DNA from: Mizuhopecten yessoensis
Lineage: Eukaryota
Assembly: GCF_002113885.1 (NCBI RefSeq)
Contig: NW_018408629.1
Coordinates: 2,189,971 to 2,253,970 of the forward strand
Direction: 5' to 3'
DNA length: 64,000 bases
Each line of letters opens with the position of its first letter. Position 1 is the stretch's first letter. A program made the position numbers and the translations under genes. Below are positions 8,789 to 52,634 of this stretch, piece by piece. The notes under the pieces are model-generated. The model worked only from the letters and a program-made list of their open reading frames with translations. It made no database searches and was not told the origin of the DNA.

Positions 8789-10096
8789 TGCACAAAGATT
8801 GTCAGGTCTTTTGCAAGATCTGCTACCTAACTTTGCAAAAGCATCAATAACAGACTCTCAGCTAAGGAGGTTTTATGAAAATGGTATCTTATTGATGGTT
8901 TTAAGTTGTAAATGCAGAGAATTGTTATTTAAACACAAAACAGAGATTGAAATCAAGAGTATAGTGGCCATTTAAAAATCTGTCTCTACACAACAAAATC
9001 TAGCGTTTTTTGCAGTGTATTTTTTACTCGGCACCTGTAAATATTGACAAAAGGACATTGGATGAAGCTATGCTAAAAATGAGTATTTCTGTTACCGAGG
9101 CCAGTGATATTAAATTTTAGACAGATTTTAAGAAAAAAAACTTGGGAGGGGGGGGGGGGGGGGTAAAATTTTGGATTAAAAAAAAGTTTTTATTAGCATT
9201 TTTGGATGTGGTTTTCACTAGTCGGAAATCAGGGGAAAACAAAATGATTTCTCTAAAATGTTGTAATTACATATGTTTTATGTAATTTATGAATACCTGG
9301 ATGTAGTTTTTATTGTGTGCAGGATGAATATGTTTACTGTATAACAGACCTGCACTTTATTTTAGGATAAGGTAATTTCTACTCTGCACTGCTTAAATCA
9401 CAACTTTGGAGTTTAGTATCTTGAGGCGGACCCTCGTGTCTTGAAGACATCAAGTGTTTCAGCTGACACAATTTCAGGAGGCAATGCAATTCAGGCTTTG
9501 ATGGTGCCTGGGAAATATGAAAACTTTCTACAATCATTCTTGCAAGATTGTAGGTGGAATGTCTTATTATGCATGTTTCTAGTTAATCTGTGTGGTGGTA
9601 TAAGTCTATCCTCTTTAATGATTTTAACATGCCCATTCACAATTTTGTAGAACATTTTAAGGTGTGCATCCTGTCGTCTGACTTCCCGTGATCTCCAGGC
9701 CAGATCCTCCAGCACTGGTTCTACACTGGATCTACTGTTGAACTGGTTGCTGACATAACGTGCACCTCTGTGTTGGACCATTTCTAGATGATAGATATCC
9801 TTTTGATGGTATTGGATCCCAAACAGTTGACGAATATTCTACTATTGGACTTACAAGCGTCTTATAGGCATTTCCTTTTTGCAGGTTTGGAAGCGATGTT
9901 AAGGTTTTGTCTTAGAAATCCTAATATTCTGTTTGCCCACGTGTTAGTCTGTCCACAAATAACATAATGCTGGAGCTTGTGTATTAATAGGCTATGTATA
10001 TGACTGACCTTGGTGAAAGCTTTTGAAAAATCAATTATGCGGACATCAGTCTGCTTCCCCGCTGACATGTTGATAGTGATGTCATCAATGACACTG

Positions 10097-14844: not shown

Positions 14845-17800
14845 ATGGGGAACATTCACACTGTTGGGCCCAGTGAGGCTTTGGTAATTTCAGGTAAGTT
14901 TATAAAAATGTGAAGGTACATTTTCTCATCGTCAACTGGAATGCATAATGGTAATGCCAGAAGACGAAAGTCGGTCAGTTGATGAGATTCCGGCTGACCC
15001 ATCCATGGCTGTATATTTAACATGTTTCTTACCGTGACCTGTGGCAAATAAACATATTTGCAACTTAAAGTTTTATTAGGCATTGCTTATTAATGTCTTA
15101 TTTTATATACATCGTTACTTTTGATCGATTTAACACAGTCGCTGCAGATTCTCTGATGGGACCCAGAGAGGGTGTGTCGACATCGGTATGCGAATCCCTC
15201 ATCTGTAACTGGAAATATGTATCTCGTATTTCACTTATTTGGAGCGATCAAATTTCAGTTGTAAGCTTTCTAGAGTTCTTAAATTATTCGAGGTTAAATA
15301 ATTGGGAAAATACAGTTTTAAATGATATTTTAGCATTAATACTTGCAAGTCACGGGAAAGCAGTTGCGCAATTTTCTTGTTAAATTTCAAAATACTAATC
15401 AAGCCTCTTATCAAGGATGTTAGCCTAAATAGATCGAGCAACGTATATTGTAATGTTGATTACATAACCATTGTGTTTTTATTATGATCAGATAATCATA
15501 TAACTAACAAATAATTATTGTTTAGAAATTATGATTTAATTTTTACATTGAATTTTTCTTATTAAGGAAAAATAAATCAGATTTTTACTGTAACATGCCG
15601 ATGTAATGTTATATAATGATGAGATGTTTTTATTCTGAAAGGTCAACTAACAAGTGAAAAAAACCCCACTTATTTGTGTAAATCTAAACTTAAGTGTACA
15701 GACTACAGTAAACTGCCAAAACTAATTCAATGTGCCTTTAAAAAAAGAATGTACTTCTGTTCATTATTTTTTCAATATCTTTGCCAGGGGTCGAACCTGG
15801 GACCCTGAGTTTATTAGCCTTATGTGTTACGTGATGGTGAGAAAGACATTTTCTCTAGATCTACAACTGTACTAAGCCAGTCAGTAGAAAACAAAACTAG
15901 TATTTAACCAGGGACTGGGTGACATACAAAATAAATATGAAATTACAAATTTAATTATCATTCAATTTTTACTGAACTCTACTGAATTGCAATGCACTTG
16001 TTACATGAATTATTATGAAGAATGCCACTCCAAAAGCATATGGGGCTGCAGTGGCAAAGTGGTAAGGCGTCTTACATTCTGCTACCACTAGCCCTCCACC
16101 ACTGGGTCATTGTCATGAAACCTACGTGGGGCAATCGCCAGGTACTGGCCGTAGGTCAGTGTATTTTTCTCTGGGAACTTCAGCTTTCCTCCACCATCAA
16201 TACCTGGCACATCCTTTCAAATGACCATAGCTGTTAATAGGATGTTAAACACAAACAAACCAAACCAAATGCATATGTTGTTCCCCAAATTATATATATT
16301 CATATATGATTATAATTGAATTTCCAAGATAAAATTGTAATGCCTTAAAAAACAATTATTAAGGTAAAGAAAATGAAAGCATAACAAAAGGAAAATTCAG
16401 AAAAATTCAGTTGCTGTGTATAAATTTTTTATGTGATTGAATTCGTTTTTACAAACTAATTCAATGAAAAATTGTAGAAGGTATTAGTGTGGCTGTGTAG
16501 CAGGTTGGAAAGCTTGGAGTCTCAGGTTCAATCCAAGTTTAAAGCACACTACCTTCTTAGTTTTACAAATGGTGTCTAGATCTGTGGCCCTTGTGATGAT
16601 TTGCTAATTGGGTTGTGATGTTCAAGGCCATGTACACATGAACAAAAAGGGCTTGGAAGATATGGAAGTCTGTCATTGGTTCAGTCGACCCTGGTGGAGA
16701 AACACTTTGACCTGCTGGCTACATGTAGATTTATTCTAAATGAAAATAATCTTGAATGATGAGACTATTTTTACCCATGATGCTTAAATGTTTGTCAAAA
16801 TGTGATGATGAAGTATTAGATTTATCGTGCTTTAAGAAATTGGGCTTGAGCACAAAATCTGAGTTTGAGCATAAGAACGGTTTTAGGAATACAGGCTCTG
16901 ATCTTTGTTGACATATAAATGGTTAGTATACATATGCATGGACAACAATAAAGTGCAGTACATTGTTATTGTACATAAATCATTGTCTTGTGGTATTAAG
17001 ATGACATACTAATACATTTTTGTTATCTCCCCTGTAAACAGGAGGATGCTGGGGGGGGACTGCTCGTAAGATGATTGTCGGCGGCTGGGGTTGGGCCTGG
17101 TGTCTTGTCACAGATGTACAGACGTAAGTATATATACAGTGTATGTGCATCGTAAAACTGAACCAACTCTGTTTTCTCAAAGTTTTCAATCAGTTGTTGA
17201 GTTTGTAATCAAAATATAATTAAGGATAATGGAGTTTGGTAACAAATTATATAAGTCTTAATCATTCAAAGTAATTGATTAGATTCATCCAAGATAAACC
17301 TGGTCCCAGTATTGATCCACATGTGTGTATTTAATTGTTAATTAGTATTTATTGTTTGGAAGTAATGAGTCCAGCCAAACCAGAATTCAACAATTGACCC
17401 TCAAAATTACAGACACTACTGCGACTACAGCATAAATATGTTTGTCACTGGCAATTAATTGTAATCCAGTCCTGATCCTGTACACATCTTATTAATGATT
17501 CCTTACAATTGGTTAATTATAACTTAAATTTTGTATTGCTTGTCCACCTAGTACCATCCTCTCAATACCCAAGGGTAACACTCACTTTCGCTCACTGCAC
17601 CCCTGCAGGAATATGTAAATTGTAATAGAAAAATCAAACACTAGCTATTTGATTGGTTCTGGGTAAAAACTCCTGACCAATTGCTCCTTTCAAGATTACA
17701 GAGAAGCACAACCAGCTTCAAAACCAATCAATTTTACAGTAATGCGACTGAGATTCGTTTAATGTACATCAAAGCACCAAACTAGTCTTCTTATCATATC

Positions 17801-20800
17801 CACCAGGTGGTGCACACTAGTACTGAGCCTTCGATTTTGCTTTGACATGATATTCCAGGTACGCAGAGAGCGAAAGCGAGCGAAACTCCTGGAGTATCGA
17901 GGATGTCATAGTACAAATGTATACCTTGATAAATTACAATAAAAAACCACCAATAACTATGTATTTATGAAATTATGACACTCATACAAAAAATTGAAAT
18001 ATGTTGATCTGTTTTAACCCAGAATCTCCCTGGAGGTAATGACCTTGAACCCTGTGTGTGAGAGCGTGGAGACGTCCGAGGGTGTCCCCGTTACAGTGAC
18101 AGGGGTCGCCCAGTGTAAGATTATGCGGGAGCCAGAGATCCTGAAGACGGCCTGCGAGCAGTTCCTCGGCAAATCTGTCCAGCACATAGAACATGTCATC
18201 CTCCAGACTCTGGAAGGCCATCTCCGTGCTATCTTAGGTAGGTTTTTCTGTAGCCAGACTCTGGAAGGCCATCTCTGTGCTATCTTGGGTAGGGTTTTCT
18301 GTAGCCAGACTCTGGAAGGCCATCTCCGTGCTATCTTAGGTAGGGTTTTCTGTAGTGATTTATAAGAATATGAGCTAGGAAATAGTGTCACTAGGAAATT
18401 CACCATGGATCCTTTAACAAGTACTGAAGTAGTATATATATATATTCTTAATTTATACTAACGTTGTTGCTAGCTTATGCATATTTTACATCTTTAACAT
18501 CCTCAGCAAGGTCCATTTATATTTAAAGGACTCATTCCTAATTGATTTTCTTTTCTTTTCGATTTGCTCCTTTAAAAGTCCTAATTGGAAAATTTAAAAA
18601 CATACAATGTAAATGAGTTCTCAAAACGCGTTATATGTAGGAACTAGGAAGGACAGAATGATCCTGCTGTCTTAAAGATAAGCTTAAATATAAGTCTAAT
18701 GATCCTTCAGATTTCATCATTTCCCAAAACGGTTCTTATGTTGATAATTTTTTCCCCAATTTCATCCCCATAAACCCCTGGTTATAGTGTACATCAAAAA
18801 AAGGAGCCTCACCAGTAATTAACATATTTATTGCCCCAAATTTGAGCAGAGGATTAAGCACAAGTTATATCAACTTATCAACGGCTTTTTCTCTTAATAC
18901 AGTACATATTGATATTTACATGATAACATTTAACAAGGCATATATAGTATATTTTACAATTATTATATTTTACTTAAAATCTGTTGCTGGATTTGATGAA
19001 AAGTTGCATGTGTCTGAATACTTCTGTATTGGTATCTACGGACAGATTTTCATTCCCGAATATAAACGAGTTTATGTTTTAAAATAGCGTAATTTGTGCT
19101 GTATTATAAAGTTTACATTCTAAGAAAAATGACCAACATCCTCACAGGAATGTCCACAAGCGCATGATGGCTTATCAACAATCTTAACACGGAACAAATC
19201 ATTTTTCAAAGAGCTGCACTGATGCCTGAGTTTCGTATGTAATATGTTTAAATTGCGTTCGCCAAAATTATAATAAGATGGTGGAGACGAATTTGCACCA
19301 CTGAATATAGCAGAATTTAAAAGTATTTAACGATGGCAATGTTCTTATTGTATTGTCGAACGAATTCCAAAGACGTAAACTTGATGGCAAAATAAGAAGA
19401 GTTGCTTGAGGAGAGTCTGAAAGAAGAAATATTGTAATCCTATTGGTTCCTTAAATTGTACCGATTCTTGTTAACCACTGTGTTTGGCAAAAGGGCCAAT
19501 AAATAGCTGGGGGTTAAGTTGTTTTTCATTTTATATAAAATATTCAATTTTCGCCTTTTTCTCCTCTCTGATAATGTTTCTAAACCCATTTCAAGATATA
19601 ATGAATCATTACTTGTATAAGAAGGCAGTCCTGTTATAACTCGAGCCGCCTCTCTTTGAGCTTTCTCTTATTTCTCAGATTCCCATAATTCACAGGCATA
19701 TTCAAAAACTGGTAAAATGAAAGATTTACAAATTTTTAAAAGTGAATCTCTTTTCAAGAAGTATTTGAGTTTTCGTAAAACATTAAAACATTAATCTTTT
19801 TCATAACCGAACTATAAACTGCCTCAACATGACTTCCCATTTTCTATTGAATTGAAATTTACTCCTAAATGTCTATGTACGTCTGTAAAATTAAAAAAAT
19901 TTCGCATCAAACATCAAATCCAAGTCGTCGTCAATATCGTTTGCATTTGAAATAAAAAGAACGTCCGTTGTTTTTGAGGATTAAAAGAAACCAACCAACG
20001 TTTAGCCCACTGATTTACAGATTCTAGGTCCTTGTTGAGAACAGTCTGTATTTCATAGCATGAAAATCTGCAAATAACCTGTTGGCCGAATCAAGTACAT
20101 CAGTAATATCATTAATATATATCCAAAAGAGAAGCGGCCCGAGCATTGACCCTTTAGGTACACCTGCGTCAATATTACCTAGTTCCAAAAATGAATTTCT
20201 GATTAAAACTTTCTGTTTGCGCCTTTATAAATAATTTTCGAGCCAATGCAATAGTTCCCCTGAAATTCCGTACGCTTCTAACTTTGCTATCAAGCCCCTG
20301 TGCCAAACACGATCAAACGCCTTTGATATATCACAAATAATAATGCAGGTATGTTTTATTTCTTCTAAAGCAATACAAATATTATGGTAAGTTTCAATAA
20401 GTTGATAAACAGGAGAATGACAAGGCATACAACCTTACTGGTATCGATAAAACAAGCGATTTTCCAAAAAGTAATTATACAAGTGTTTGTAAACTACACG
20501 CTCAAACACTGTACCAACTGTAGATAGTAGGGGTATAGGTCTATAGTTACACGGCGTATGACAATCACCCTTTTCGAAAAGCGGCATAACAGTTGCAAGT
20601 TTCCATTTATTTGAACAACAAACGAAGAAAGTGACATGTTAAAAAGTATTTAAAGTGGTTTGCAGATGGAGTTAATAGCAGTATACTTCAGCACATGATG
20701 ACTAATCCCCTCCCCTCCCTAAGCTTTCCCTAGCTTTAAAACTTGTAAAACATCTTTTATTTTTGAATGATTTAACCGCAAAGATACAAAACGTTTATCT

Positions 20801-34517: not shown

Positions 34518-35220
34518 ATACACAATGGCTTTATTGTTAATTTATTTTATATTTTACAATCATTTTGATCATGATTAGAGTTGTCTCCCTTGAAAAAAAT
34601 CGAGACATTCTGCACGAAGATATTTTTTTTTTTTTTTNNNNNNNNNNNNNNNNNNNNNNNNNNNNNNNNNNNNNNNNNNNNNNNNNNNNNNNNNNNNNNN
34701 NNNNNNNNNNNNNNNNNNNNNNNNNNNNNNNNNNNNNNNNNNNNNNNNNNNNNNNNNNNNNNNNNNNNNNNNNNNNNNNNNNNNNNNNNNNNNNNNNNNN
34801 NNNNNNNNNNNNNNNNNNNNNNNNNNNNNNNNNNNNNNNNNNNNNNNNNNNNNNNNNNNNNNNNNNNNNNNNNNNNNNNNNNNNNNNNNNNNNNNNNNNN
34901 NNNNNNNNNNNNNNNNNNNNNNNNNNNNNNNNNNNNNNNNNNNNNNNNNNNNNNNNNNNNNNNNNNNNNNNNNNNNNNNNNNNNNNNNNNNNNNNNNNNN
35001 NNNNNNNNNNNNNNNNNNNNNNNNNNNNNNNNNNNNNNNNNNNNNNNNNNNNNNNNNNNNNNNNNNNNNNNNNNNNNNNNNNNNNNNNNNNNNNNNNNNN
35101 NNNNNNNNNNNNNNNNNNNNNNNNNNNNNNNNNNNNNNNNNNNNNNNNNNNNNNNNNNNNNNNNNNNNNNNNNNNNNNNNNNNNNNNNNNNNNNNNNNNN
35201 NNNNNNNNNNGAGAGAGAGA

Positions 35221-35260
<40 letters not shown>

Positions 35261-38200
35261 TCTGGGCCAGTAAAATAAAAAAAAAGATTTAAATAAGTTA
35301 ATTAAGAAGAATTATCTAGGAATCGAGGAGAGACGGAGAACATGAAAAATATGAAAAGCTGTTTTTACCTTGGTATTATTTAAATTAAACTTCCGCATAG
35401 TCTAATATTTTCATCCATTTTCTCCATTCTTTCTCAAACCTATCCTGTGCAGAATCACCTTGACTGTTTACAATATATTTTTGAACAGTATAATGTTCTT
35501 TAATCATGTTAACTAAGGCATTTGGGCTCAACGTTTGATGTCGACATCTTGTCTTATAAATATAAAACTTAATAATAATTAAAATTTCATTGTCAATTCT
35601 ATTATATGTCATACTCTCGTTTGCTACCAATAATCCAAAAAGAAAACTGATTTTATTAAATGAAAATGGGATAAAAAGTGCATCTAACAATATTTCAAAA
35701 CTTTGTAAAAAATTCTGTACTTCTCTACATTCCCACAAAATATGAATGATTGTTTCTTGTTCTAAATTACAAAGTGTACAGAGTGGACTTGTCACTAATC
35801 CTACTTTAAACATGGATGAATTTGTTGTCAAAATATGATGAACAATTCTATACTGAAACCATTGTAGTCTTGAATTTTTTGTTATTCTAAAAGGGGTCTT
35901 ATATATATCATTCCAATTAAAATTATTCAAATCCAATTTTTCTTCCCATTTTCTCCTCCCAGAAGCAATAGTATCTTTTTTTACCATAAGATTATAAAAA
36001 TCTTTTATCCCTTTTACTCTTTTTAAGAAAAATTTAATATTACAGGGTATGATAGGGTATACAATAGCATCCTTTTTACAATCAATTTTAACTAAATATT
36101 TCCTTATTGTAGTTAATACACCATGATATTGGATAAAATTTGTATTTACCTGATAAATTTGAGCAAATTCTTGAAATGTGTAAAAAGTGCAAGTCTCAAT
36201 GTCTTTTATTAAGTCATAAATTATAGTCACTCCTTTATTATACCATGTCTTGAAAAATATTGATTTTCCCCCAATAGTAAAATTCCTATTGTACCATAAT
36301 GGCATTTTCCAGATGCAACTTTCATTAATTTGTTTCACCCGCTCCTTTTCATTAAACCTTCTCCATGCTTTAAAGACATCTTTCCAAAAATAATTTGTGC
36401 ACTTATTAAGACATATTGGAATGTAATCACTTCCACAATGAGATAGCATATGTAAGTCAAGATGTGTTTCTAAGATAACTTGCCACTTGCCCGACTTCTG
36501 ATATAATCTCCGTATCCACCCTAATTTTAAGGAATCAATGAATGACCTTATATTAACCATTTTAAGACCTCCTTCAAAATAATTTTGAAATATCACATCT
36601 CTCCTTATTTTATCAGTTTTACTGTTCCATAAAAAGTTAAAGAGAACATTATTTAATTGATTCAAAAAAAGATCATCAGGATTTGGCAATGCAATAAATA
36701 AATGGTTAAATTGTGATATCATTAAAGATTTTATCAGATGGATTCTACCTATAGGAGTAAGTGATCTTCTGTTCCATGCCATGATAAGTGCTTTAAGTTT
36801 AATTAATTTTTTATCAAAATTTAATTTTGGGATTTCATGAAGATTGACACTAAATTCTATTCCCAGAAGCATGAATTTTGTCCTACCCCACTGCAATTTT
36901 AGATCAGGTAAAAATGTATCTTCACTATGTATTTTGCTCCCTATCCAAACCACCTGGGTTTTGTCTATATTTATCTTCAAACCAGATATTTTAGCGAAAG
37001 TATTCAATTCTGCTATCGACTCTTTTAAAGACCTTTCTGAACCATCTAAAATGAGAGAAGTATCATCAGCATACTGAGAAATAAGGATTGGACTTTTATT
37101 GACTTCTATACCCTTAATCTTATTGTTATTTCTAAGTCTTATGCCTAGTATTTCAACACACAAAATAAAAATGTAGGGGGCGATTGGATCACCTTGGCGA
37201 CAGCCTCTTTTTATGTTTAGAAATGATGAAAGATTACCACCTTGGTTTATAGTTGAACTTACATTGGTGTGCAGTAGTTTTATCCAGCATCTAATATCAG
37301 AACCAAAATTAAAATAATTTAAAACTTTATCAACAAATTCCCATGAGACTGAGTCGAATGCTTTCTCAAAATCTACCATTAATAACATACCTGGAATATA
37401 TCTTTCTTCTGCATATTGCATAATGTCATAAACTAATCTAGTATTTTCCCCTATATAACGGCCTGAAAGAAATCCTGTTTGATCTTCACTAATTAATTTA
37501 TCTAAAACTGTTCTAATTCTACCTGCTATCGATCCAGACGCTATTTTATAGACTATATTCAATAATGTTATGGGTCGCCAATTTTTTATGAACTGCCTAG
37601 GTTTATCTCCCTTGGGAATACATGTTATAATACCTTGCCTTTGTGTTACTGATAGCAAACCTTTCCTATACCCACAATTTATAGATCTAACAATGAACCC
37701 ACCTAGCTGTTTCCAGAAACACTTAAAAAATTCTACAGTAAACCCATCAGAACCGGGACTTTTGTTATTTTTCATATTTTTCAAAGTTTTTGTTGCTTCA
37801 TCTAAAGTAATTAACCCTTCTAGACCAAAAGAATCGTTATTTTCTAATTTTGAAACATCACATGTATTCAAAAAATCTGCTAAATCTATATCATCAATAT
37901 CAGTATTATTATCATATAACTTTTCATAAAATAAACGAACTTCTTCTAAAATTTCATTCTGTTGTGTAATAATAACATTATCATCTTTCTGTATCTTTGG
38001 TATAATCTTGGAAGTATAATTCCTATTTTCTAACTTGAAAAAATAATTTGTTGGCTTTTCTCCTTCCTCTTGCCATCTTGCCCTAGATCTAATTATACTA
38101 CCTCTTACCTTCCTCAACCTAATATTTTCCAATTCCCTTTTCTTAATTTCTAAATCTTCTATGTCTACATGTTCCTGCTCTTCAATAGTTTGTATTTTTC

Positions 38201-41200
38201 TCTTAAGATCATCTTCCTCCCTACTTTGCTGTTTCTTTCTATAAGATGAATAAGATATACTTTTACCTCTGATTTCCATTAATAATGTTTCAAGAAAAAG
38301 CTGGTCATCAATTACAAATTCTATTTCTGTATCTGGTATATTCATTATAGCATTCAGATTATACACTGGCAAAGAGTACTGAGTTTTTGTTTCTAAAATA
38401 ATATTTTTCACCATTTGATGATATTCTTCCTCATATAAAAGAGATGAATTAAATTTCCACAATCCCTTTCCCCGCTTGAATTCATTCAATTTTAAAACAA
38501 AAAAAATATCAAAAATATCAAAACTAATATGATGGGTAGGTATTCAGCCAGATGTTATGTATTAAATATAAGCAATACTATTCAAACATTTTCAACGTAT
38601 AAACGTTTCAAACTACGATCTAAATTGATAAATGTTAAAATGGGCAGCATTTACTCTTAGCCTTTTCCCAGACAGATAATATCAAATTTCTTAAGGTACT
38701 TTTTTGCAGACATTTGTCTTGCACTATTCCAATGTATTTGACTAAATGTTTTTTGTAAACAGTGGTTATAAGCATTAGTACCGTAATGTAGTTAAATAAA
38801 TTACAAACTCCACGTGTTACGCGCTCTATGCTCATGGAATATGTCATAGAAAAATGAAGGCACGCTGCAAGCTATTTAATTGGTTTTAGGTTGACAATTA
38901 CCCTGACCAATCGCAAGGCTGATAACTATTATTTGAAGATTACGAAGGAGCGACAACCGACTTTAAAGACAGTCAATGTTTTAGTGATGTACATCAAGTC
39001 TTGTCTTATCCACAAGGAGGCACACACTGGCCCTTCGTAATTGCCATGACATATTTCAGGGATTTAGAGAGCGTAAGTAAAACGCCGTTCCCGGATTTTG
39101 TGAAAGGGGATGTCTATGGGAAATACAGTTGGGGGAGGGGTCATGATCCCTAGTAGACCTCCTAAATACACCATTTATACGTATTTGATTTTGCAGGTAA
39201 AATTAAGAGGGAACTTGGTATATCTTTATTTGATGTCAAAAATACTAGTGTTAGCATAATGTATTTCATATCTTTATGCTGTTCCCATTAAATCAATTAT
39301 TATATATTAAGATCTAATCATTTTCAGTTTTATAAATAGTCTCGATATCATAATTAAATTATACCTTCTTCGCCGCGAGATGGTTTAGCATATAATGCAT
39401 TAAGCGGGAAACCAGGTTCTCCTGGAATAGGATACTTCTTCAATCCTAGGGTATGCATCTCTTTATGGCCCTGTTTCTGCGATGTACACTAGGAGTAAAG
39501 ATGTAAATTATTTGACTCCGTTAATAACTTATTCTGACGTTGTAAGACACAATCAAATACTTAGCATACTGTTAAACATGTCTCAGAACCTCATCATTTT
39601 TGATGGTTTAATCAATTGTATATACGCAACGTATTTCACATTAACATTGCCACTCAATCAGGATATCATACACATGACATTCAACATAAAAAAATGCACT
39701 TATATATAGGATCATTATATTCTTACATGAGTTTCATATCATATATGAGATTTATGAAACGAGTCTGGCGAGCTTAAATGAAAAATTCGTGACGAGTTTC
39801 ATGAAAACGAGTGTAAGATCCTTTTGATCATATAATCAAGATTTGGATTAGTGGCCTTGACACCAGACTTAGACATTTTGACAGTATGGTGCCCCCAAAC
39901 CCGACATCTATCTGTCAAAATGTCTCCCCACAACAAACATCTATCTGTCAAAATATCTCTCCACAACCGACATCTATCTTGGTCAAAATGTCTCTCCACA
40001 TTAGACATCTATCTCTCAAAATATCATTCCACAACAAACATCTATCTCTGTCAAAATGTCTCCCCACAACAAACATCTATCTGTCAAAATATCTCTCCAC
40101 AACCGACATCTATCTTGGTCAAAATGTCTCCACATTAGACATCTATCTCTCAAAATATCATTCCACAACAAACATCTATCTCTGTCAAAATGTCTACCCA
40201 CAACAAACATCTATCTCTGTCAAAATGTCTACCCACAACAAACATCTATCTCTGTCAAAATGTCTACCCACAACAAACATCTATCTCTGTCAAAATGTCT
40301 ACCCACAACAAACATCTATCTCTGTCAAAATGTCTACCCACAACAAACATCTATCTCTGTCAAAATGTCTACCCACAACAAACATCTATCTCTGTCAAAA
40401 TGTCTACCCACAACAAACATCTATCTCTGTCAAAATGTCGAAGTCTGATATCAGGGATAAAGGAAACAGAAGATAGCTTATCAAATACCAGCGGATGTCT
40501 CGATCTAGCAAACGTTGCTTGTCTGAGTAATATAGTAATTAACAAGCTGAATAATTATCAATTATACATACCTTTTGTAATTTCTTAATACATTCGGATA
40601 TGAATAATGTTATGTAGATCAGAGTACGATCCGCTTCGCTCTGCAAAACAACAGCAGTATAATGTTGATAAAAACATTTCTAATATTTTCTTTGTGCTTC
40701 TTGTCTAATTTTATGTTTAAATAAGGGCAAGCTTAGTATAAATATTTTATGAGACCAACGCCTGATACTTTAACGTCAATATCAAACATTAGCACAACGT
40801 AATAGCAGATAAATTAGGATTCAGAAAGATCTCATAATAAAAAAATCGTTGCAGATTTACTGTAATTATAATTAAGGTATATTCTCGGTATTATATGTTT
40901 TACAATATTTGAAGACATTTCACATGACATGGACTTTCCTCTTGGTATGAAAAGGAGTTTTGTATACTAACTATTTTAAAGATGAAGTTGATATTTCTCA
41001 CCTTTATTTCGTAGTTCTTGAAGAAAATATTGGATTTAAAGTAGTATATTCCCTCGTCCACTATATCAAAATCACTAGCTGAAAAAAAGAAGACACGCGA
41101 GAAGAGTAAATATCATGCTAGACAAGGACTTTCTGAAATGTTAGAGAATTCACCAAAATGTCACTTGTATAGATATTTAGTAAATACCATATCATTACAA

Positions 41201-44295: not shown

Positions 44296-45452
44296 TGTTG
44301 AAACGTCCCCTTGTGATCCGCCCCTTAGACTTTTGACATCCAGTCAAGTGTAGTTATAAACATCCGTGTATGAACTGATAAGTGTGGATACGTCACTGGC
44401 TAGGCTCTCGTGTTAATACTGACTAGCTATACACCGTTATCATTACTGTTAGTTTGGTATACAGACGCATTGTTAACTTTCACGTAGTTCTGATCGATTA
44501 GATAATTCTGAAATGGGAGGATTTTTAAAAGTTTTCAGAAACAGATACAACGATCATTAACTTAGTTAATTAGGATATAACAAATTGCTATTTTGATTTA
44601 TCAACCAAAACATCCCTTGCGTTTTCTTTACATATGTCATCAAAGTGTATGTAAATCCGTTAATCAAATGCAAATTTGGTGAAACTGGGGCAAAATATGA
44701 ACTTACGAGGTATTTATAGGCAACCTGTGATAGGCAAAATGTGGTATACGTGTATTTATTTGCCTTTACCAGAATAAATATGATTAACCCTTGGACATTT
44801 GAGAATAAACTTTTTCTGCTTTATCGACAACACCGGTCATTTAAGTACAGGTCAAATTCTAGTTATATTGTCACGCTATCAAAGTAAGATCGGGGAAGAG
44901 GCGACACCAAATGGCATAGCGACCACTTTGCCCGTCTCTGGAAAAAAATGTGAAGTAATTAAGCTTGTCTGTCAACTATTGGCATCAATATCGGAAATCG
45001 TGATATTCGGAGCAAGCCCATGACATGGAAAAGGAAGCATTTCATATATTTTTGGTAGACGCTGAATCTGTTGTCCAATCAGTTACATATCAAGGGGCCA
45101 GCTGTACAACGAACATTAATAAGCTTAATCACTGTTTAATTAACAACCTATAATAATTTGGTCTATATACAAGGTAAAAACTCGTAATTTTGCATGTTAT
45201 TTTACTGTGCTACACTATTGCTATCTAGCAAATTTTTTACTTAGTTTGTGGTTGTGTTTTATAGAAAAATAAAAAATGAACTTGCGCTAACCACCGATTG
45301 AGTTGATTGATCACGTTTGAACAACCGGGCCCAGGTTTCACCTATTCTGCAAGTAAGGTTATATTTTACGTTAACTTTGCCCTTAGACACCTCATCGTCG
45401 ATATCCAGGGGTTACGTTCACGTTCGCTCTCTACACCCCTAGACTATGTCAA

Positions 45453-45664
45453 AGCAATGTTGAAGGCACGAAGATAGCTGTTTGATTGGTCTCAGGTAAA
45501 AACAACTGACCAATCGCTAGGCTGATACGTATACATGTCCTTTGAAGATTACAAAGAAGAGGCGTCCGACTTCAAAGCCTGTCAATTTTTACCGTTACGT
45601 GACCGCGAGATTATTTTGATGTATATCAAAGGATCGAACTAGTCTTTTGGTCTCATTATCAAGG
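45453..45664 (+). repeat. 212-bp direct repeat, left copy (LINE target-site duplication)
   Basis: agcaatgttgaagg...ctcattatcaagg, no mismatch seen versus 50875-51086. Confidence 0.95.
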
Positions 45665-45667
45665 GAG

Positions 45668-45678
45668 CAACATGGCGG
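45668..45678 (+). promoter_or_regulatory. YY1-like motif CAACATGGCGG at the LINE 5' end (candidate internal Pol II promoter)
   Basis: Positions +4 to +14 of the element; matches the CAANATGGCG YY1 consensus. Confidence 0.5.
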
Positions 45679-46115
45679 CGTTGGGTTAGAAGCGTATGAA
45701 GGAGCTCCGGTAATTTATCCTGAGAATGCCTCTCTAGTAACCCCGGAAAGTCCCCAATATTGGACTGTGTGACGGTGAGATCATTTCTAACATAATGATA
45801 ACATTATTTTGAAAAAATATTTTGAAATATCCCCTTTGCGGACCATAATAGCATTCATTACCTGTATACCTGAGGTACACACATGTACCTGAACGATACC
45901 TGTGTTGCACGTGCAGACTACTATACTCACCTATGTGACATGTATGTTAGTACTGGAGTTACACCCTGGAAAGCTGTGGTTTATTTATGAACGTTTATTC
46001 GTACATGTACATATACATGTTCATCTTTTTGTATAATACGGATTTTAATGTGCGTTTACTGTGTAAGAACGGTAAACTAACCAGTATGACCTTGAACTGT
46101 GTGCACGTGTAGCCC

Positions 46116-47213
46116 ATGGGTAAGAAACGTAATAGATCTCATACGGACACGAGTACTGTAATGGCTATGGCACATAGAGATCTCTATGGTACCCCACATG
46201 GTAATGTGGCCGCCACGCAACCATGTTTCCAACCTGCCCCGCAGTACCCGCAGTACCCTATGCAAAGCTCGTGTATACCCCCCAGTTCTCCTGCGAATCC
46301 TCAGTTGATGTTCCCTCAGGCAACCTCGCCTACTCCTGACACCATTTCCCCACACTTCAGTGATCAAATTCTTCGAGACATATTTCAACGGTTAACTAAG
46401 CTGGATACACTGGATCAAATCATGTCTAGACTCAGTGTCATCGAGGGCAAGTTTAGCAGTATGGAGAGTTCGTTATCAGGCGTTAAACGTGAACTTAAAA
46501 CACACAGTGAACAGCTCGAGGGTGCGGATTTCGACCATTCCATTCTTGAAGAGAGAGTCAGCAAAGTGGAACTTGAACGGGAGGAGGTACGGGAAGAAAA
46601 TCGCCTACTGAAAGATCAAATACTCGAGATCCAAACACGATCGATGAAGGACAACCTGTTATTTGGAGGAATCCCAGATGTTGACCGTGATGAAGACACC
46701 GAGGCTGTTGTGAAGGAATTCATCAAGACGGAACTCGGTATTGAAGAGGAAATGCAGCTTCATGTTGCCCATAGGCTGAGGAAAAGATCCGATAATAAAC
46801 CTAGGTCCATAGTAGCTAAATTCTCTAGCAGAAAAGATAGAGACAAAGTGTTGAAGGCTGCCCCAAAACTAGCGGGGAAAAGAGAATTCTCTGTATTTGA
46901 GCAATTCCCGCCGGAAATAAATGACAGGCGACGTTTACTCTATCCGGTGTTTAAGGAAGCCAAGAGGCATGGAAGGCACGCTCGCCTGCTAGGTGATAAA
47001 CTCTACATTGACGGTAACCTTTACATCCCACCTCAGCATCATCATCCTAGTCATCCTCCCATAGGCCGAGATCATCCTCCTGATTCTCGCAGAGGACCTG
47101 GATGGCACTCATCGGCCCAAGGACGGCAGACAGCCACGCCCCCTAGTGGTCAGCATCAGTTCCGTAATGCTCGTCACGTGCCAAACCCCCGCAATGACAG
47201 TCGCCCCATGTAG
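46116..47213 (+). CDS. LINE ORF1p, L1-type (coiled coil + RRM + CTD), 365 aa
   Basis: Heptad coil LTKLDTLDQIMSRLSVIE..., RSMKDNLLFGGIPD, AHRL...KPRSIVAKF, VFEQFPPEINDRRRLLYP...DKLYIDG. Confidence 0.88.
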   Translation: MGKKRNRSHTDTSTVMAMAHRDLYGTPHGNVAATQPCFQPAPQYPQYPMQSSCIPPSSPANPQLMFPQATSPTPDTISPHFSDQILRDIFQRLTKLDTLDQIMSRLSVIEGKFSSMESSLSGVKRELKTHSEQLEGADFDHSILEERVSKVELEREEVREENRLLKDQILEIQTRSMKDNLLFGGIPDVDRDEDTEAVVKEFIKTELGIEEEMQLHVAHRLRKRSDNKPRSIVAKFSSRKDRDKVLKAAPKLAGKREFSVFEQFPPEINDRRRLLYPVFKEAKRHGRHARLLGDKLYIDGNLYIPPQHHHPSHPPIGRDHPPDSRRGPGWHSSAQGRQTATPPSGQHQFRNARHVPNPRNDSRPM

Positions 47214-50200
47214 GGAGACGCGACAAGAGGTCAACCCCGTGACATTGATAAAGACACTATCAAGTTTACTTTCCTTAATGTTTGCGGTATTAAGTCTAAG
47301 ATACTTTTGCCTGAGTTTGAAGACTTAATCCTAGCACATGACATACTTATTTTTGCAGAGAGCAAGATTGATAATCTGGATCATTTACAACTACCGCCTG
47401 ACTATGAATATTTTGCTAAATGTAGAACTAATGCATATAAAAAATCTGGTGGTATAGTAATTATTTTTAAGAAAACTCTCAAGTCGATGTTGACTTTTCC
47501 TAAAACTTTATCAGAATATGTATTGTGGGTAAATTTTTCAAAACACGTTGTGAACTCTGATCTAGATTTTCTACTGGGATGTGTTTATATACCTCCCGAA
47601 AATACTAAGTATGCATCCCCGGAAGCGTTCAATGAAATTGAAAGGGAGATGATAGAATTATCCCATCATGGTAACAAAGTCGCCATAGTCGGAGATTTTA
47701 ATGCTAAAACCCAAGTTAGAGATGATTTTGTAGAACCAGATGATAACTTCATTCGTTCATTAAACTTAGATGAAAATGATGAGCTATACTCATATCTCTA
47801 TGATATTGAAAAGTTGAAATTATATAATGTTCCTCTGCGAAGGGCTAGTCAATGTAAAGCTAAAGTTAATAATTATGGCAATAAATTGCTTGACTTCTGC
47901 AAGCAAAATAATATGTATATTGCCAATGGTCGGATTGGAAATGATGCACAAATAGGTAAAACTACATGTAGTGATGTCAGCGTTATAGATTATCTATTGC
48001 TGTCGTCAGATATGTTTCGGTATACAACAGATTTTGAAATCAAAGTTTTTGACCCACTCATATCAGATGTCCACTGTAGACTTGTATTTAGCCTTTGTAA
48101 ATTAACTGATGAATGTATATATAATACCGAATGTCATGAAAATCGATATACAAAGTGGAAATCCTGTAAAGAACAAGATTTTGTAAAACATATACTAGAT
48201 GATGAAAGAGGTAATCTCCATAGAATTAATGATAAATTAAATGAATTATTAAATAAACAACACGACAATGTAACCAATAACGAAATTAATGACATTGTAA
48301 ACTCAATTAGTGAATTGTTCAAAGGCTCTGCTAAGCAGGTTTTTGGTAGTAACAATGCTTACAGGAAACGGAGGTTGAGATGTGATAATAAACCTTGGTT
48401 TAATAGGGAATGCCACTTAAACAGAGTTGAATTTAATAAAGCCAAGGCCTTATTTCACAAAGTAAATAATCCTATAAATAAAACTAATCTCAATAGAGCT
48501 AGTAAAGTTTATAGAAAAACATTGAATAAAAATTACAGAAATTATCAGGAGAAATTGTCAAGCGAGTTAAGAAATACTGCTAGAATGGATTCAAAAAAAT
48601 TCTGGAATATTTTGAATAAATGTGACGGATCTGTAAAGAAAGGTAATGCTGATATATGTATTACTGAATTATATGAATACTTTAAGGATCTGAACAAGTC
48701 TGTTTATGATGATGACGATTTTGAGCTGGAAAATCCTGATAATAGTATTTTTGATGATTATCTGAATGGTGAAATTACCACTGATGAAATTAAATTTTCT
48801 TTAATCAATTTGAAGAATAGTAAAGCCTCTGGTATAGATCAAATCCTAAATGAATATCTAAAAAGTACAATGGATGTATTTTTACCAATTTATCAAAAAA
48901 TATTTAACCTTATTCTGAATACTGCGTCTATACCAGATGTGTGGAAGATCGGTATTATAAAACCAGTATATAAAAACAAAGGCGATCCAAAAGATCCGGA
49001 TAATTATAGAGCGATCACTTTAGTCTCGTGCCTTGGCAAAGTTTTCACTTCGGTTATTAATAATCGTTTAAATAAAATTTCTGACGAATTTGACCTGATA
49101 AGCAGTGCACAAGCTGGGTTTAGAAAGGGTCATTCTACAACCGATAACATGTTTGTATTGTATTCTTTAATCTCAATATATTTTTCATTAGGAAAAAAAC
49201 TTTATTGTACGTTCATCGATTTTAGTAAGGCGTTCGATTCTGTATGGAGAGTTGGTCTGTGGAAAAAGCTCCAAAAAAGCAACATTACTGGAAAAATTTT
49301 CAATATTATTTATAAGCTATATGATAAAACCAAATCATGTGTTAAAAATGGATGTGAACAGTCGGATTTGTTCAATTGTGAGATCGGTTTAAAACAGGGC
49401 GAAAATTTATCGCCATTTTTGTTTGCAATTTATTTAAATGATTTAGAAACTTATCTTGTTGAAAAAAATGTAAATTGTCTTCAAACAATAGACAAATTAT
49501 GTATTGATAACATTGGAGTGTATCTCAAACTATTCATTATCTTATATGCCGATGATACTGTCCTGTTTTCAGAAACACCAGATGGTTTACAGTTAGCTTT
49601 AAATGAATTTGAACAATACTGTAATACTTGGAAGTTAACTATCAATTCAGGAAAAACTAAAATTGTCATCTTTTCAAAAAGAAAATGTGCAAGAACTCCC
49701 CATTTTACATTATGTAACGTAGAATTAGAAATACTGGAAGGGTATACCTATCTAGGATTATTCTTTAATTTTAGTTGTAGCTTCTTTAAAGCAAGGAAAA
49801 AAATTGTTGAACAAGCACAGAAATCAGTGTTTGCTGTCTATAAGAAATTGAGAAACATATCTTTACCAGTTGATCTACAATTGAAGATATTTGATTCATT
49901 AATTATGCCAGTTCTTCTCTATTCATCAGAAATATGGGGTTTTGAAAACACAAATATTATAGAAAAAATCCATCTTCAATTTTGTAAATATATACTAAAT
50001 GTAAGAAAAAGTACACCAAATTTCATTGTTTATGGTGAGCTTGGAAGATACCCACTAGACATCGAAATTAAATGTAGAATAATAGTATTCTGGCATAAGT
50101 TGATTACCTCTAGTAAGTTATCAAGTACTATTTATAAGCTTATGTATACATTACATGAAAATGGAACTATGTTATTTAAATGGCTCGCATATGTTAAAGA

Positions 50201-50726
50201 TATTTTTTCTCAAACTGGCCTGAACTATGTGTGGTACTATCAATCTACATGTTCTTTTTCAAAAGACGAAATTAAGAGGCTTGTGAAAAGTAGACTGAAG
50301 GATCAATTTATACAGAAATGGTTTGATAATATTCTTAACTCCTCTAGAGGACAAACATATTCAATATTAAAGACAAAGTTTGAACAAGAAAAATATTTAA
50401 TTAAACTTAATACAAATGATAGGAAAATAATGTGTAAATTCCGTTCTTGCAATATGCATTTACCCATAGAAAAAGGAAGATGGTTAGGTATTCCTCGTCA
50501 AGAAAGAACCTGTACATTATGTAATTTGTACATTGGAGATGAATTTCATTACTTATTTATATGTGAAAGTGTTTTAGTTAAATGTCTAAGAGAGAAATAT
50601 ATACCAAAATATTATTTCACTTATCCAAGTCAATTAAAAATGCAAGGATTGTTTAATATATTTAATGTAAAAATTCACACAAAACTTTGTAAATTCATAG
50701 AAAAGCTTGAAAAAATATTAACTTAA
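47214..50726 (+). CDS. LINE ORF2p (APE endonuclease + reverse transcriptase + C-terminal Cys/His motif), open from the codon after the ORF1 stop
   Basis: TIKFTFLNVCGIKSK, IFAESK, VYIPP, VGDFNA, IDY, SDVH; KASGIDQI, NYRAITL, DFSKAFD, QGENLSP, LYADD; IEKGRW...CTLC...DEFHYLFIC. No internal stops. Confidence 0.93.
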   Translation, partial: GDATRGQPRDIDKDTIKFTFLNVCGIKSKILLPEFEDLILAHDILIFAESKIDNLDHLQLPPDYEYFAKCRTNAYKKSGGIVIIFKKTLKSMLTFPKTLSEYVLWVNFSKHVVNSDLDFLLGCVYIPPENTKYASPEAFNEIEREMIELSHHGNKVAIVGDFNAKTQVRDDFVEPDDNFIRSLNLDENDELYSYLYDIEKLKLYNVPLRRASQCKAKVNNYGNKLLDFCKQNNMYIANGRIGNDAQIGKTTCSDVSVIDYLLLSSDMFRYTTDFEIKVFDPLISDVHCRLVFSLCKLTDECIYNTECHENRYTKWKSCKEQDFVKHILDDERGNLHRINDKLNELLNKQHDNVTNNEINDIVNSISELFKGSAKQVFGSNNAYRKRRLRCDNKPWFNRECHLNRVEFNKAKALFHKVNNPINKTNLNRASKVYRKTLNKNYRNYQEKLSSELRNTARMDSKKFWNILNKCDGSVKKGNADICITELYEYFKDLNKSVYDDDDFELENPDNSIFDDYLNGEITTDEIKFSLINLKNSKASGIDQILNEYLKSTMDVFLPIYQKIFNLILNTASIPDVWKIGIIKPVYKNKGDPKDPDNYRAITLVSCLGKVFTSVINNRLNKISDEFDLISSAQAGFRKGHSTTDNMFVLYSLISIYFSLGKKLYCTFIDFSKAFDSVWRVGLWKKLQKSNITGKIFNIIYKLYDKTKSCVKNGCEQSDLFNCEIGLKQGENLSPFLFAIYLNDLETYLVEKNVNCLQTIDKLCIDNIGVYLKLFIILYADDTVLFSETPDGLQLALNEFEQYCNTWKLTINSGKTKIVIFSKRKCARTPHFTLCNVELEILEGYTYLGLFFNFSCSFFKARKKIVEQAQKSVFAVYKKLRNISLPVDLQLKIFDSLIMPVLLYSSEIWGFENTNIIEKIHLQFCKYILNVRKSTPNFIVYGELGRYPLDIEIKCRIIVFWHKLITSSKLSSTIYKLMYTLHENGTMLFKWLAYVKDIFSQTGLNYVWYYQSTCSFSKDEIKRLVKSRLKDQFIQKWFDNILNSSRGQTYSILKTKFEQEKYLIKLNTNDRKIMCKFRSCNMHLPIEKGRWLGIPRQERTCTLCNLYIGDEFHYLFICESVLVKCLREKYIPKYYFTYPSQLKMQGLFNIFNVKIHTKLCKFIEKLEKILT

Positions 50727-50874
50727 TTTCTGTACTATTTGTGTACTTCTATATGTATCTATGCTATGTACAATGTTGTAATTGTGTACATCACACGCCA
50801 TGTATCATACTTACTATATGTATGTGACCTCTTGTTACACACGTAAGTGTGTCGGAGTGAATAAATAAAAACTT

Positions 50875-51086
50875 AGCAATGTTGAAGGCACGAAGATAGC
50901 TGTTTGATTGGTCTCAGGTAAAAACAACTGACCAATCGCTAGGCTGATACGTATACATGTCCTTTGAAGATTACAAAGAAGAGGCGTCCGACTTCAAAGC
51001 CTGTCAATTTTTACCGTTACGTGACCGCGAGATTATTTTGATGTATATCAAAGGATCGAACTAGTCTTTTGGTCTCATTATCAAGG
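50875..51086 (+). repeat. 212-bp direct repeat, right copy (LINE target-site duplication)
   Basis: No mismatch seen versus 45453-45664; followed by tggcgcacactgag, the continuation seen in uninterrupted MITE copies. Confidence 0.95.
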
Positions 51087-52634
51087 TGGCGCACACTGAG
51101 CCAACAATTTTGCTATGACATATTCTAGGGGTGCAGAGAGCGAAAGTGAGCGTAACCCCTGGATATCGAGGATGCCGTAAGTTACATCCTTGACAATGAA
51201 GCGTCTGTCATGATTTATTCACTACTTTTTAGGTTGTTGGTGTTCAAATACTTTATTATTCCTCAATATGACGTTGGTACAGAATCTGCATAGTTGTAAT
51301 GAATTCATAAGTTCGCCCTCATTAAAAGGCGTGAAATCTCTTTGCGGCGAATATTTTCCAGTATACAGCATTTAGCATGGTATTGTTAATAAAAAAACAA
51401 GAACAATATCAAAAATAGTTATATCATATTTAATAATACTCCTTTTTAACTTATAAAAGCATTAATACATAGTATATCTTAATAGATGGAAGAATGTAAC
51501 CTTACATATTTAAATGGTTCATAACTCATTCTCTCAATATGGATACATACATGTTTTTATCTCATTCCGAGACAATTAAGTACTGATAATTTTAAAAGAT
51601 TTGTTTTAACATGTTTCCTGTAAAGAATATTATTAAGAAAGTGTACAAAATTTCAGATCAAAATCAAACGACATCTGGTCTAGAGATTCTCTTTCTTCTC
51701 ATGAATAAGAAACTGATCACTAAAATACAAAAACATTTAGTCATGTTTTTACAAATAATTTTCAAAATTTGAATTTGACAACTGAGTTTCACATATAATT
51801 AAAAATGTAATGAAATACAATACAATTAGTTGGACTCTAAACATAAACCTTGTGATAGCTTACAGCCACTGGATTACATTGGAGAGACATTTTCTTTATT
51901 AATGGTACAGATTCCAGGTAGTTTCCCGTGGCTGGTTTCTCTTCTATGTAACATACTGCTATAATAGAATTTGTACAAACAGGTGTGTATAGCACATATA
52001 CCGGTATATGTTATAAATAAATATTGAAAACAAATCAGACCTACGATGTCAAAATGCACCCATTTCAATTAAAAAAAAAAGAAATTCTACCATAATTTAG
52101 CTGTAAAAAATATCAGATCAAATTTATGATTGCACATGTGTCAATTTTAAAATGACATTATACCATTATTTCTAAGTGAAAAAAAATATCAGATCAAATT
52201 TGGAAATAAAGTAAGCTTAATTAATATTCTTCAAAGGAGATTTTGAAAACATGAAAATGTGTTTTTTGGTACATTGAAATTCCTACATTGCAGATACCTT
52301 GGATAAATAGTTACATATACAGACAATTTCAAAGAAAATATAGACTTTGTTCATTCTCCTTGAATATATTGAATGATATAAATAAGCTTGAATTATATTT
52401 GTCAGATAAAATGGAAAGAAAAAATACATCAAACATGTATATCATATGACATCATACATACATGTTCTAGTATGTCACATGCATTTAAACAATTGATGAT
52501 TTACTTCAGAAATCTCCCAAAATCCTTAACAGCGAATACATCATTGATAGAATTTCAGTGTATTCTCTGTATGGTTTCTGAAATGTGTATCCTTCTTGTT
52601 ATGATAATATTTAATAAATCTAAGTAAATGTCTA

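Follow-up and report, generated by a model that had tools for sequence, protein, structure and literature searches.

The window analysed in this study, a stretch of 64,000 nucleotides (nt) from the scallop Mizuhopecten yessoensis (RefSeq assembly GCF_002113885.1, contig NW_018408629.1, forward-strand positions 2,189,971 to 2,253,970), carries a long interspersed nuclear element (LINE) of the RTE-X type (Table 1; positions are those of the window). The two open reading frames (ORFs) of this element, ORF1 and ORF2, share a single frame and are separated by one UAG, which, as judged from sequence comparison, is likely to be a site of programmed readthrough. From the ninth nucleotide after the UAG (+9), a 12-nt strand is perfectly complementary to a strand in the 3' untranslated region (UTR), and we lean towards the view that the predicted long-range helix stimulates the readthrough.

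A single in-frame UAG between ORF1 and ORF2

ORF1 encodes a protein of 365 amino acids from the ATG at 46116 (an alternative ATG lies at 46161), and a profile of 25 ORF1 relatives matched structures of LINE-1 ORF1p (E 2e-9). In ORF2, an apurinic endonuclease (APE) domain precedes the reverse transcriptase (RT) domain (Pfam Exo_endo_phos and RVT_1, respectively), and the family profile matched L1 ORF2p structures (E 3e-49). The initial annotation had described ORF1 as ending in CCC ATG TAG with the frame then open to 50726, and this was confirmed: the 1536 codons counted from 46116 contain exactly one internal stop. Its second statement, that the endonuclease begins ahead of any usable AUG, also held, as motif I (TFLNVCG) occupies codons 19–25 after the TAG (47268–47288), the catalytic Glu of FAES is codon 49, and the first in-frame ATG of ORF2, at 47487, is codon 92. 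The ATGs at 47167 and 47194 belong to the +1 frame, which ends at a stop at 47326, and no AUG in the ORF2 frame overlaps or closely follows the ORF1 stop, the only nearby in-frame ATG preceding the TAG. The NCBI proteins of two scallop copies begin at the Met beyond the catalytic Glu; P0020, from another M. yessoensis scaffold and different at one residue, is annotated from the same downstream Met.

Relatives were collected by scanning genome contigs with an ORF2 alignment, which yielded 17 loci of animal-type LINEs in bacterial genome bins. As the scan used two RT motifs only, the loci were not selected for the type of junction between the ORFs. The junction was readable in nine loci (L001–L005 and L007–L010); L006, L012, L014, L015 and L017 were too short to reach it, L011 starts inside the N-terminal extension, and L013 and L016 are degraded. 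The junction of L010 was placed by alignment to L001, and in L001 and L005, in which the contig start cuts the upstream frame, that frame was taken as an ORF1 tail on account of a short motif common to L002. The bins that supplied the nine loci (JBEVXV01 and JBEVXT01), like those of other loci in the scan, hold many full-length animal-type LINE contigs and appear to represent eukaryotic contamination; the hosts of these elements are presumably animals.

A TAG was found at the junction in all nine readable relatives, and hence at 10/10 junctions including that of the window. The same codon ends only one of eight ORF2s (Fisher's test, p 2.5e-4). ORF2 is open directly after the TAG and in the frame of ORF1 in seven of the nine relatives (8/10 with the window), while ORF2 is broken by frameshifts and stops in L003 and L010. 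The elements concerned are divergent, with ORF2 identities of 37–40% to the window and 37–58% among all, and those bearing the TAG fell into three separate, well-supported subclades in a quick tree computed without clade references. Between the TAG and motif I lie 11 to 548 codons, a stretch that cannot be aligned among elements and that contains no Met in five of the eight intact ones; no amino acid is conserved around the stop. In L004 (1546–2470) and L009 (1560–3200), the TAG and the endonuclease are separated by Cys-rich, stop-free extensions of 308 and 548 codons, respectively, the latter with internal tandem repeats. In a Mytilus protein family, ORF1 ends at one stop in seven members, and the adjoining ORF2 call begins after the catalytic Glu.

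A private nonsense mutation, which the initial annotation had named as the case fatal to its reading, is excluded by the TAG in 9/9 readable relatives. More generally, the proposal that the TAG reflects such a mutation, an assembly error or a host code with TAG as a sense codon is almost certainly wrong. The protein call P0074, which runs from the C-terminal domain (CTD) of ORF1 into the endonuclease without a stop, would agree with it, but the TAG is present at 10/10 junctions, the second scallop copy P0020 shares the downstream annotated start, no TAG occurs inside any intact ORF2, and the ORF2 of L001 itself ends in TAG.

P0074 is one of three joint ORF1/endonuclease proteins (with P0045 and P0148) that are known at the protein level. 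A Gln stands at its junction, followed by residues resembling the post-TAG pattern, and it may represent either a TAG that the gene caller translated as Gln or a copy with CAG or another sense codon. Overall, matches to ORF1 and to the endonuclease coincided in 19 of 175 proteins. Most of these lack large internal stretches, as spliced gene models typically do; in the Mytilus set, the protein leaves ORF1 19 residues before its stop. No natural fusion was found among five protein matches of 836–2662 amino acids, nor, with the ORF1 profile, among 7999 longer candidates, the latter being weak evidence.

A further explanation would be that the TAG is a 3' splice acceptor (TAG/G), from which a spliced RNA would continue part of ORF1 in frame, with the downstream purine tract described below as an exonic enhancer. 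Splicing would account for the TAG only, and for the G next to it in 7/10 junctions, and the Mytilus models indeed pass from ORF1 to the endonuclease ahead of the ORF1 stop. However, these joins are predictions, none of which resumes at the stop. Furthermore, the 22 nt before the TAG form no pyrimidine tract (pyrimidines 0.45, T 0.18) and include a competing AG in 10/10 junctions, and a spliced template would give rise to fused intron-less copies, which number 0 among the ten junctions. We thus regard splicing as very unlikely. A-to-I editing, by which the UAG would become a Trp codon in some transcripts, seems to us highly unlikely. UAG is the preferred triplet of ADAR, amber/W editing operates in hepatitis delta, and editing would explain the strict use of TAG. 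Nevertheless, the UAG lies outside the conserved helix described below, its pairing varies among elements, and an edited RNA, once reverse-transcribed by the ORF2p that it encodes, would leave TGG in the genome, a codon found at 0/10 junctions.

Alternatively, ribosomes may terminate at the UAG and reinitiate, aided by the helix, at a near downstream non-AUG codon (AUG in some families), producing a separate ORF2p as in human L1 and SART1; this is the main rival of readthrough. Precedents are at hand, as SART1 requires a structure downstream of the stop (PMC5972666) and L1 reinitiates unconventionally (PMC10275272). In the window, the AUU at 47244 is in frame and is flanked by G at both −3 and +4, a Met precedes motif I in three of the eight intact elements, and many related ORF2 calls start with M 5–17 residues ahead of motif I. 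However, in database ORF2 calls an alternative start codon is often written as an N-terminal M (P0021 versus P0003, P0193 versus P0036), which is therefore no evidence of AUG initiation, and the Met codons in the three elements occupy unrelated positions (codons 10, 15 and 442). In addition, reinitiation requires neither the same frame nor a UAG, whereas the former was seen in 8/8 intact elements and the latter at 10/10 junctions. We consider reinitiation unlikely and readthrough the better explanation of the junction.

Complementarity between the stop-proximal tract and the 3' end

The nucleotides immediately after the UAG are variable. G occupies +1 in 7/10 junctions, and the context UAG-GGR was found in three (the window, L008 and L010). 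The initial annotation had named conservation of TAG-GGA as a check; the TAG is conserved, at 10/10, but UAG-GGA occurs in the same three junctions only. The tract further downstream is regular: purines begin at +9, i.e., 8 nt past the UAG, in 9/9 junctions, and make up 61 of the 63 bases from +9 to +15, a count reached by 0/5000 max-statistic permutations in which the position of the scored stretch was left free. The base at +9 is a third codon position and is G in 8/9 junctions.

The initial annotation had also placed the stop at the top of a hairpin and likened the arrangement to gag-pol readthrough. The hairpin sequence is present, its core being the minimum free energy (MFE) fold of a 56-nt segment at −13.7 kcal/mol. 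However, an equally stable fold was obtained for 25 of 200 shuffles (z −1.14), and the hairpin was not consistently present in relatives. Since a ribosome decoding the stop would hold the upstream arm within it and the z is not significant, this hairpin is probably not the stimulator. Across nine elements, the combined z reached −3.0 in a single segment (−33 to +27) out of 12 around the stop, owing to L004, L001 and L008, against −1.1 and −1.9 in the neighbouring segments, and we rejected the local hairpin as a stimulator, leaving it as a possible mask of the proximal pairing strand. The gag-pol-like reading itself is well supported by the shared frame, the invariable TAG and the lack of an AUG before motif I in 5/8 intact elements.

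A local stem-loop 3' of the stop was likewise rejected, with mean z between −0.04 and 0.38 in six segments across elements; folding of 47214–47330 alone gave z −1.58. Rfam returned 0 matches at E≤1, nested folding (pseudoknots being outside the method) gave no consistent local partner for +9 to +15, and a 2A/StopGo motif was found at 0/10 junctions.

We then scanned each whole element for complements of the tract and let ungapped helices extend freely in either direction. Nine elements were tested (the window, L001–L005, L007, L008 and L010), L009 being left out as it lacks the 3' end. A predicted helix of 9–12 bp with the partner at or after the ORF2 end, 3.5–5.6 kb away, was found in 5/9 elements and is specific to each family. 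In the window, +9 to +20 pair with 50825–50836 (12 bp), a site that sits 38 nt before the element end and stays largely single-stranded when the 3' UTR is folded locally. In L002, a 9-bp helix joins +9 to +17 to the final codons of ORF2, and in L004, +9 to +18 pair with a site 51 nt past ORF2 (10 bp). The strands of L007 (+8 to +19) and L008 (+9 to +19) have partners ~2.1 kb past ORF2, no more than 200 nt from the AATAAA and simple-repeat tail. A sixth element, L005, forms 11 of 12 pairs, with one A·C mismatch, 17–28 nt past ORF2. Thus, among the six elements with a partner, the helix starts at +9 in five and at +8 in one.

In the window, L002, L004, L007 and L008, a search of the entire element places the best ungapped partner of +9 to +20 at the ORF2 end or beyond it. 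When scored by ungapped stacking energies, shuffles of the 3' region matched the helix in 0, 0, 7, 2 and 0 of 1000 cases, respectively, and shuffles of the whole element in 0, 2, 13, 3 and 0 of 300. Combined by Fisher's method across all nine tested elements, the four failures included, these values give 5e-8 (3' region) and 2e-4 (whole element). No other sampled 12-mer of the window, L002, L004 or L008 (2489–2892 tested; 2489 in the window) pairs equally with the 3' region, while 228 of 2639 control 12-mers do so in L007 (14 of 630 of matched composition). The pairing strands differ between families, with two to four kinds of base pair at each position from +9 to +17, and in four of the five elements the proximal strand obtains its best score against the 3' region of the same element. 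Because the partners were chosen by complementarity and cannot be aligned, it is the shuffles, and not the table of pair types, that carry weight.

Co-folding of the two segments gave pairing probabilities above 0.8 for most of +9 to +17 in five elements. When the RNA lying ahead of a ribosome on the stop was folded (from +1 or +9 to the 3' end), the helix was part of the global MFE structure in the window, L002, L004, L005 and L007, and was absent from that of L008, L001, L003 and L010. From seven control start points, no helix of at least 9 bp to the 3' end was obtained. In the 3' UTR of L001, we noticed by eye that ~4210–4230 complements the proximal strand of its relative L010 (2917–2929), with a cross score of −15.7 against −11.8 for its own strand, and this site is perhaps a drifted partner. 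L007 (5360–7624) and L008 (5106–7495) have 3' UTRs of ~2.3 kb ending in AATAAA and pentanucleotide repeat tails, and the distal site stays close to the 3' end despite the long UTR. A 6-bp hairpin abuts the distal strand in the window (50837–50852); it could stack on the long-range helix or aid recognition of the 3' end, but was not seen to be conserved.

Several observations weigh against readthrough stimulated by such a helix. The ungapped test failed in L001, L003, L005 and L010 (754, 708, 742 and 76 of 1000 shuffles, respectively). L001, L003 and L010 end 263, 177 and 49 nt past ORF2 without an AATAAA, and L003 and L010 are degraded; however, truncation is only a possible excuse, because L002, which also lacks an AATAAA, passes. 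The strand of L004 scores slightly better on the 3' region of L008 than on its own, and its co-folding probability falls to 0.45 with upstream sequence added. The perfect 11-bp helix of L008 is absent from the global MFE structure of that element, and the MFE structure of the naked full-length window RNA contains the local hairpin and not the long helix; one may speculate that the local hairpin masks the proximal strand until a ribosome arrives. As the distal sites cannot be aligned between families, the evidence consists of matched complementarity, not of column-wise covariation. The nine loci stem from two genome records (seven from one and two from the other), so that the family divergence is deep but the hosts are few. 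Finally, a Met does lie between the TAG and motif I in three of the eight intact elements, and we found no protease or 2A motif that would release ORF2p from a fusion.

Alternatively, the helix may have another task. Readthrough could depend on the local context or on a protein bound to the purine tract, with the helix serving escape from nonsense-mediated decay (NMD), by carrying the poly(A) tail to the ORF1 stop, or closure of the RNA for assembly of the ribonucleoprotein (RNP) or for reverse transcription. After termination of ORF1, 3.6–5.8 kb of the RNA would remain untranslated; a long untranslated tail is a typical trigger of NMD, which can be suppressed by a poly(A) tail folded back to the stop. 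In addition, the four of nine elements without a significant helix still keep the TAG and the purine tract. On the other hand, mere proximity of the two ends would not need a helix starting at +8 or +9, as seen in 6/6 elements, and the distal sites of L005, L002 and L004 are 120–900 nt, or an undefined distance, from a poly(A) signal. In addition, six segments 3' of the stop gave a mean z of ~0 and hence no sign of a conserved local fold. We therefore judge this combination to be quite unlikely and retain the long-range helix as the favoured stimulator.

Proposed mechanism and comparison with known systems

Given the shared frame, the conserved TAG, the missing AUG, the purine tract and the family-specific complementarity, all of which were observed, we infer that the helix forms in cells and acts on termination, that a fusion protein is made, and that the pairing has a role in quality control. 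In the proposed mechanism, most ribosomes would end at the UAG and yield ORF1p, while a minority would decode the UAG with a near-cognate tRNA and yield an ORF1p–ORF2p fusion of ~1536 amino acids. The stimulator would be the helix of 9–12 bp, which the ribosome would meet at its mRNA entry channel, with 8 nt between helix and stop; the second strand of this helix would be supplied by the ORF2 end or the 3' UTR, 3.5–5.6 kb away. As the distal strand is at the 3' end of the RNA, ORF2 would be produced mainly from 3'-complete RNAs. The same 3' end would be required for target-primed reverse transcription, and a ribosome moving on through ORF2 would melt the helix and release the 3' end to the nascent enzyme, which would provide both quality control and cis preference. 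It is attractive to extend this to a whole LINE lineage that makes its endonuclease–RT as a Gag-Pol-like fusion, with the helix re-matched in each family, a preference for the RNA in cis, and the fused ORF1p trimerising the enzyme into the RNP; we hold the chances of this wider proposal to be evenly balanced.

Two features of type III programmed readthrough (UAG-GGR plus a 3' structure) were found here, namely a single conserved in-frame UAG (10/10 TAG, uninterrupted frame in 8/10) and a structure ~8 nt 3' of the stop, the predicted helix, which is significant in 5/9 elements. The 3' stimulators of readthrough usually have a spacer of 8–9 nt and a stem of 10–14 bp placed at the mRNA entry channel (PMC3159437), and UAG-GGR contexts depend on downstream structure (PMC13517186). 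The arrangement of murine leukemia virus (MuLV) gag-pol is similar in that a structural protein and an RT are encoded in one frame with a UAG between them, and MuLV, alphaviruses and kelch share with the LINEs an 8-nt spacer followed by structure, with stems of 10–14 bp (PMC3159437, PMC13517186). Their partner strands, however, are local or 100–270 nt away, not kilobases. A compact pseudoknot at +9, as in MuLV, was not seen in the LINEs, which were folded by nested methods, and the LINE fusion would have no protease.

The closest likeness over long distance is with p36/p95 of the tombusvirus carnation Italian ringspot virus (CIRV), in which the polymerase is made by readthrough in a UAG-GGA context and the proximal readthrough element (PRTE) pairs with a distal one (DRTE) 3.5 kb away at the 3' end (PMC3234231). 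In both cases, by prediction in the LINE, a stop-proximal site pairs with the 3' end ~3.5 kb off, beside the element that the polymerase needs. The CIRV pairing was proposed to cull truncated genomes and favour replication in cis (PMC3234231), and this logic of quality control and cis preference fits the window element. In CIRV, however, the proximal element lies in the bulge of a large local stem-loop, whereas in the LINEs the helix itself starts at +9; the CIRV interaction was tested by mutation, whereas the LINE helix is a computed prediction; and here the host is an animal, the replicon a LINE and the enzyme an APE–RT. Kilobase-range pairing of PRTE–DRTE type was thus found computationally (3.5–5.6 kb), while a local carrier stem-loop 3' of the stop was not (mean z ~0 across elements), and we therefore speak of a PRTE–DRTE-like working and not of a member of the class.

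With L1 and SART1, the family shares a bicistronic LINE RNA, an L1-type ORF1p and low output of ORF2 (PMC5972666, PMC5009743, PMC10275272), and with SART1, which depends on structure downstream of the stop (PMC5972666), also the proposed need for such a structure. L1 differs by a spacer of 63 nt and an AUG for ORF2, and SART1 by an overlapping stop-start; in the window family the spacer is absent, an AUG is usually missing, and both frame and codon are fixed. The type of recoding is known from MuLV and, in its long-range form, from Tombusviridae, and readthrough also occurs in some LTR retrotransposons. Our literature search turned up no paper that describes readthrough, or pairing over long range, for the ORF2 of non-LTR elements; as Repbase Reports, Dfam notes and most subscription journals were outside its scope, a brief earlier note of the in-frame stop is possible. 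The reviews consulted give only reinitiation (L1, SART1), frameshifting or StopGo, and the main text of PMC10294476 contains neither "readthrough" nor "read-through".

How ORF2p is obtained from a bicistronic RNA, and how it prefers its own RNA, are long-standing questions on LINEs, answered so far by reinitiation in L1 and SART1. If the above proposal is correct, readthrough to a fusion is a third route, kilobase-range control of readthrough as described for plant RNA viruses extends to animal retroelements, and translation of ORF2 is coupled to the integrity of the 3' end, a cis preference encoded in the sequence; the usual short reporter cassettes would miss the effect, as a short cassette did in CIRV (PMC3234231). 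The 12 + 12 nucleotides named here allow a direct test by compensatory mutation. In addition, ORF2 of these abundant bivalve elements is now annotated without the first 91 endonuclease residues.

The element and its genomic setting

Table 1. Features of the RTE-X element and its surroundings in the window.
Feature	Position	Strand	Remarks
RTE-X LINE element	45665–50874	+	scallop Mizuhopecten yessoensis
MITE-like host repeat, split by the LINE	45393–51174		~360 bp when empty
Perfect 212-bp direct repeat, left copy	45453–45664		100% identity to 50875–51086
212-bp duplication, right copy	50875–51086		
5' UTR of the element	45665–46115	+	
ORF1, L1-type ORF1p	46116–47213	+	coiled coil, RRM, CTD, low-complexity tail; open 46113–47213
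Local hairpin over the stop (initial annotation)	47195–47233	+	overlaps and competes with the long-range strand
Single in-frame UAG, proposed readthrough codon	47211–47213	+	codons CCC ATG TAG
ORF2	47214–50726	+	APE endonuclease, RT, C-terminal Cys/His region; 1170 codons
Spacer between UAG and pairing strand	47214–47221	+	8 nt
Proximal pairing strand, GACAAGAGGUCA	47222–47233	+	+9 to +20; 12-bp ungapped complement of 50825–50836
Distal pairing strand, UGACCUCUUGUU	50825–50836	+	3' UTR, 99–110 nt past the ORF2 stop
6-bp hairpin abutting the distal strand	50837–50852	+	local MFE
AATAAA signal and element 3' end	50860–50874	+	AATAAA at 50860

The window from 45668 matches the first 400 nt of LINE_M.yessoensis_4 in a curated library (PMC10294476, supplement), the consensus of which is 5209 nt long, compared with ~5210 nt here, and labelled LINE/RTE-X. 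The element is thus a member of an already catalogued RTE-X family, a label that comes from the matching consensus and is used here for the window element, L001–L010 being called animal-type LINEs. Some discordance between Proto2 and RTE-X is remarked on in PMC10294476, and a supplement file of PMC11203168 gave no match to RTEX or to the RT motif. RTE-X elements carry a substantial ORF1, unlike RTE/BovB, and an esterase domain is a feature of only some RTEX members (PMC3905857). Consistent with this label, the window element has a substantial ORF1 of L1 type and an ORF2 with APE endonuclease followed by RT; domain searches found no esterase domain. It also shows the traits of a non-LTR element, namely the lack of long terminal repeats (LTRs), the AATAAA at 50860 and the 212-bp flanking repeat.

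We read the 212-bp repeat as an unusually long target-site duplication, far above the usual length for a LINE. It is part of a host repeat resembling a miniature inverted-repeat transposable element (MITE), with terminal inverted repeats at 45393–45467 and 51100–51174 (75-nt arms, 87% complementary) and related copies in the window at 17642–17905 and 38820–38981, and it lies outside the published 5209-nt consensus, which begins at 45668 (PMC10294476). Because the repeat is perfect and lies inside the MITE-like repeat, the insertion is recent and the element probably intact; a duplication of this kind points to first- and second-strand cuts set far apart and to an insertion of very recent date. 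Nematode RTE-1 makes long target-site duplications, and they are also known for R9, according to a title cited in PMC7943196. At the very start of the element (45669–45690), an ATG opens an upstream ORF of six codons, and we take the motif there to resemble the YY1-type sites of internal LINE promoters.

A second LINE is present on the minus strand at 35385–38543, with a frame of 1052 codons encoding RT and zf-RVT domains of L1/Tx1-like type; the frame begins within the endonuclease region, and the element adjoins an assembly gap (34638–35210). Tandem arrays with periods of ~150 and ~70 nt, the first common to two sites, were found at 4557–5130, 8065–8789 and 39895–40439, and the 219-codon frame at 39817–40476 is the repeat read out. 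Outside the window, tblastn against plasmids gave one match, an unannotated stretch of a 39.8-kb Alicyclobacillus plasmid record (NZ_CP104070.1, 20394–21665) with 28% identity to the LINE RT over 440 residues.

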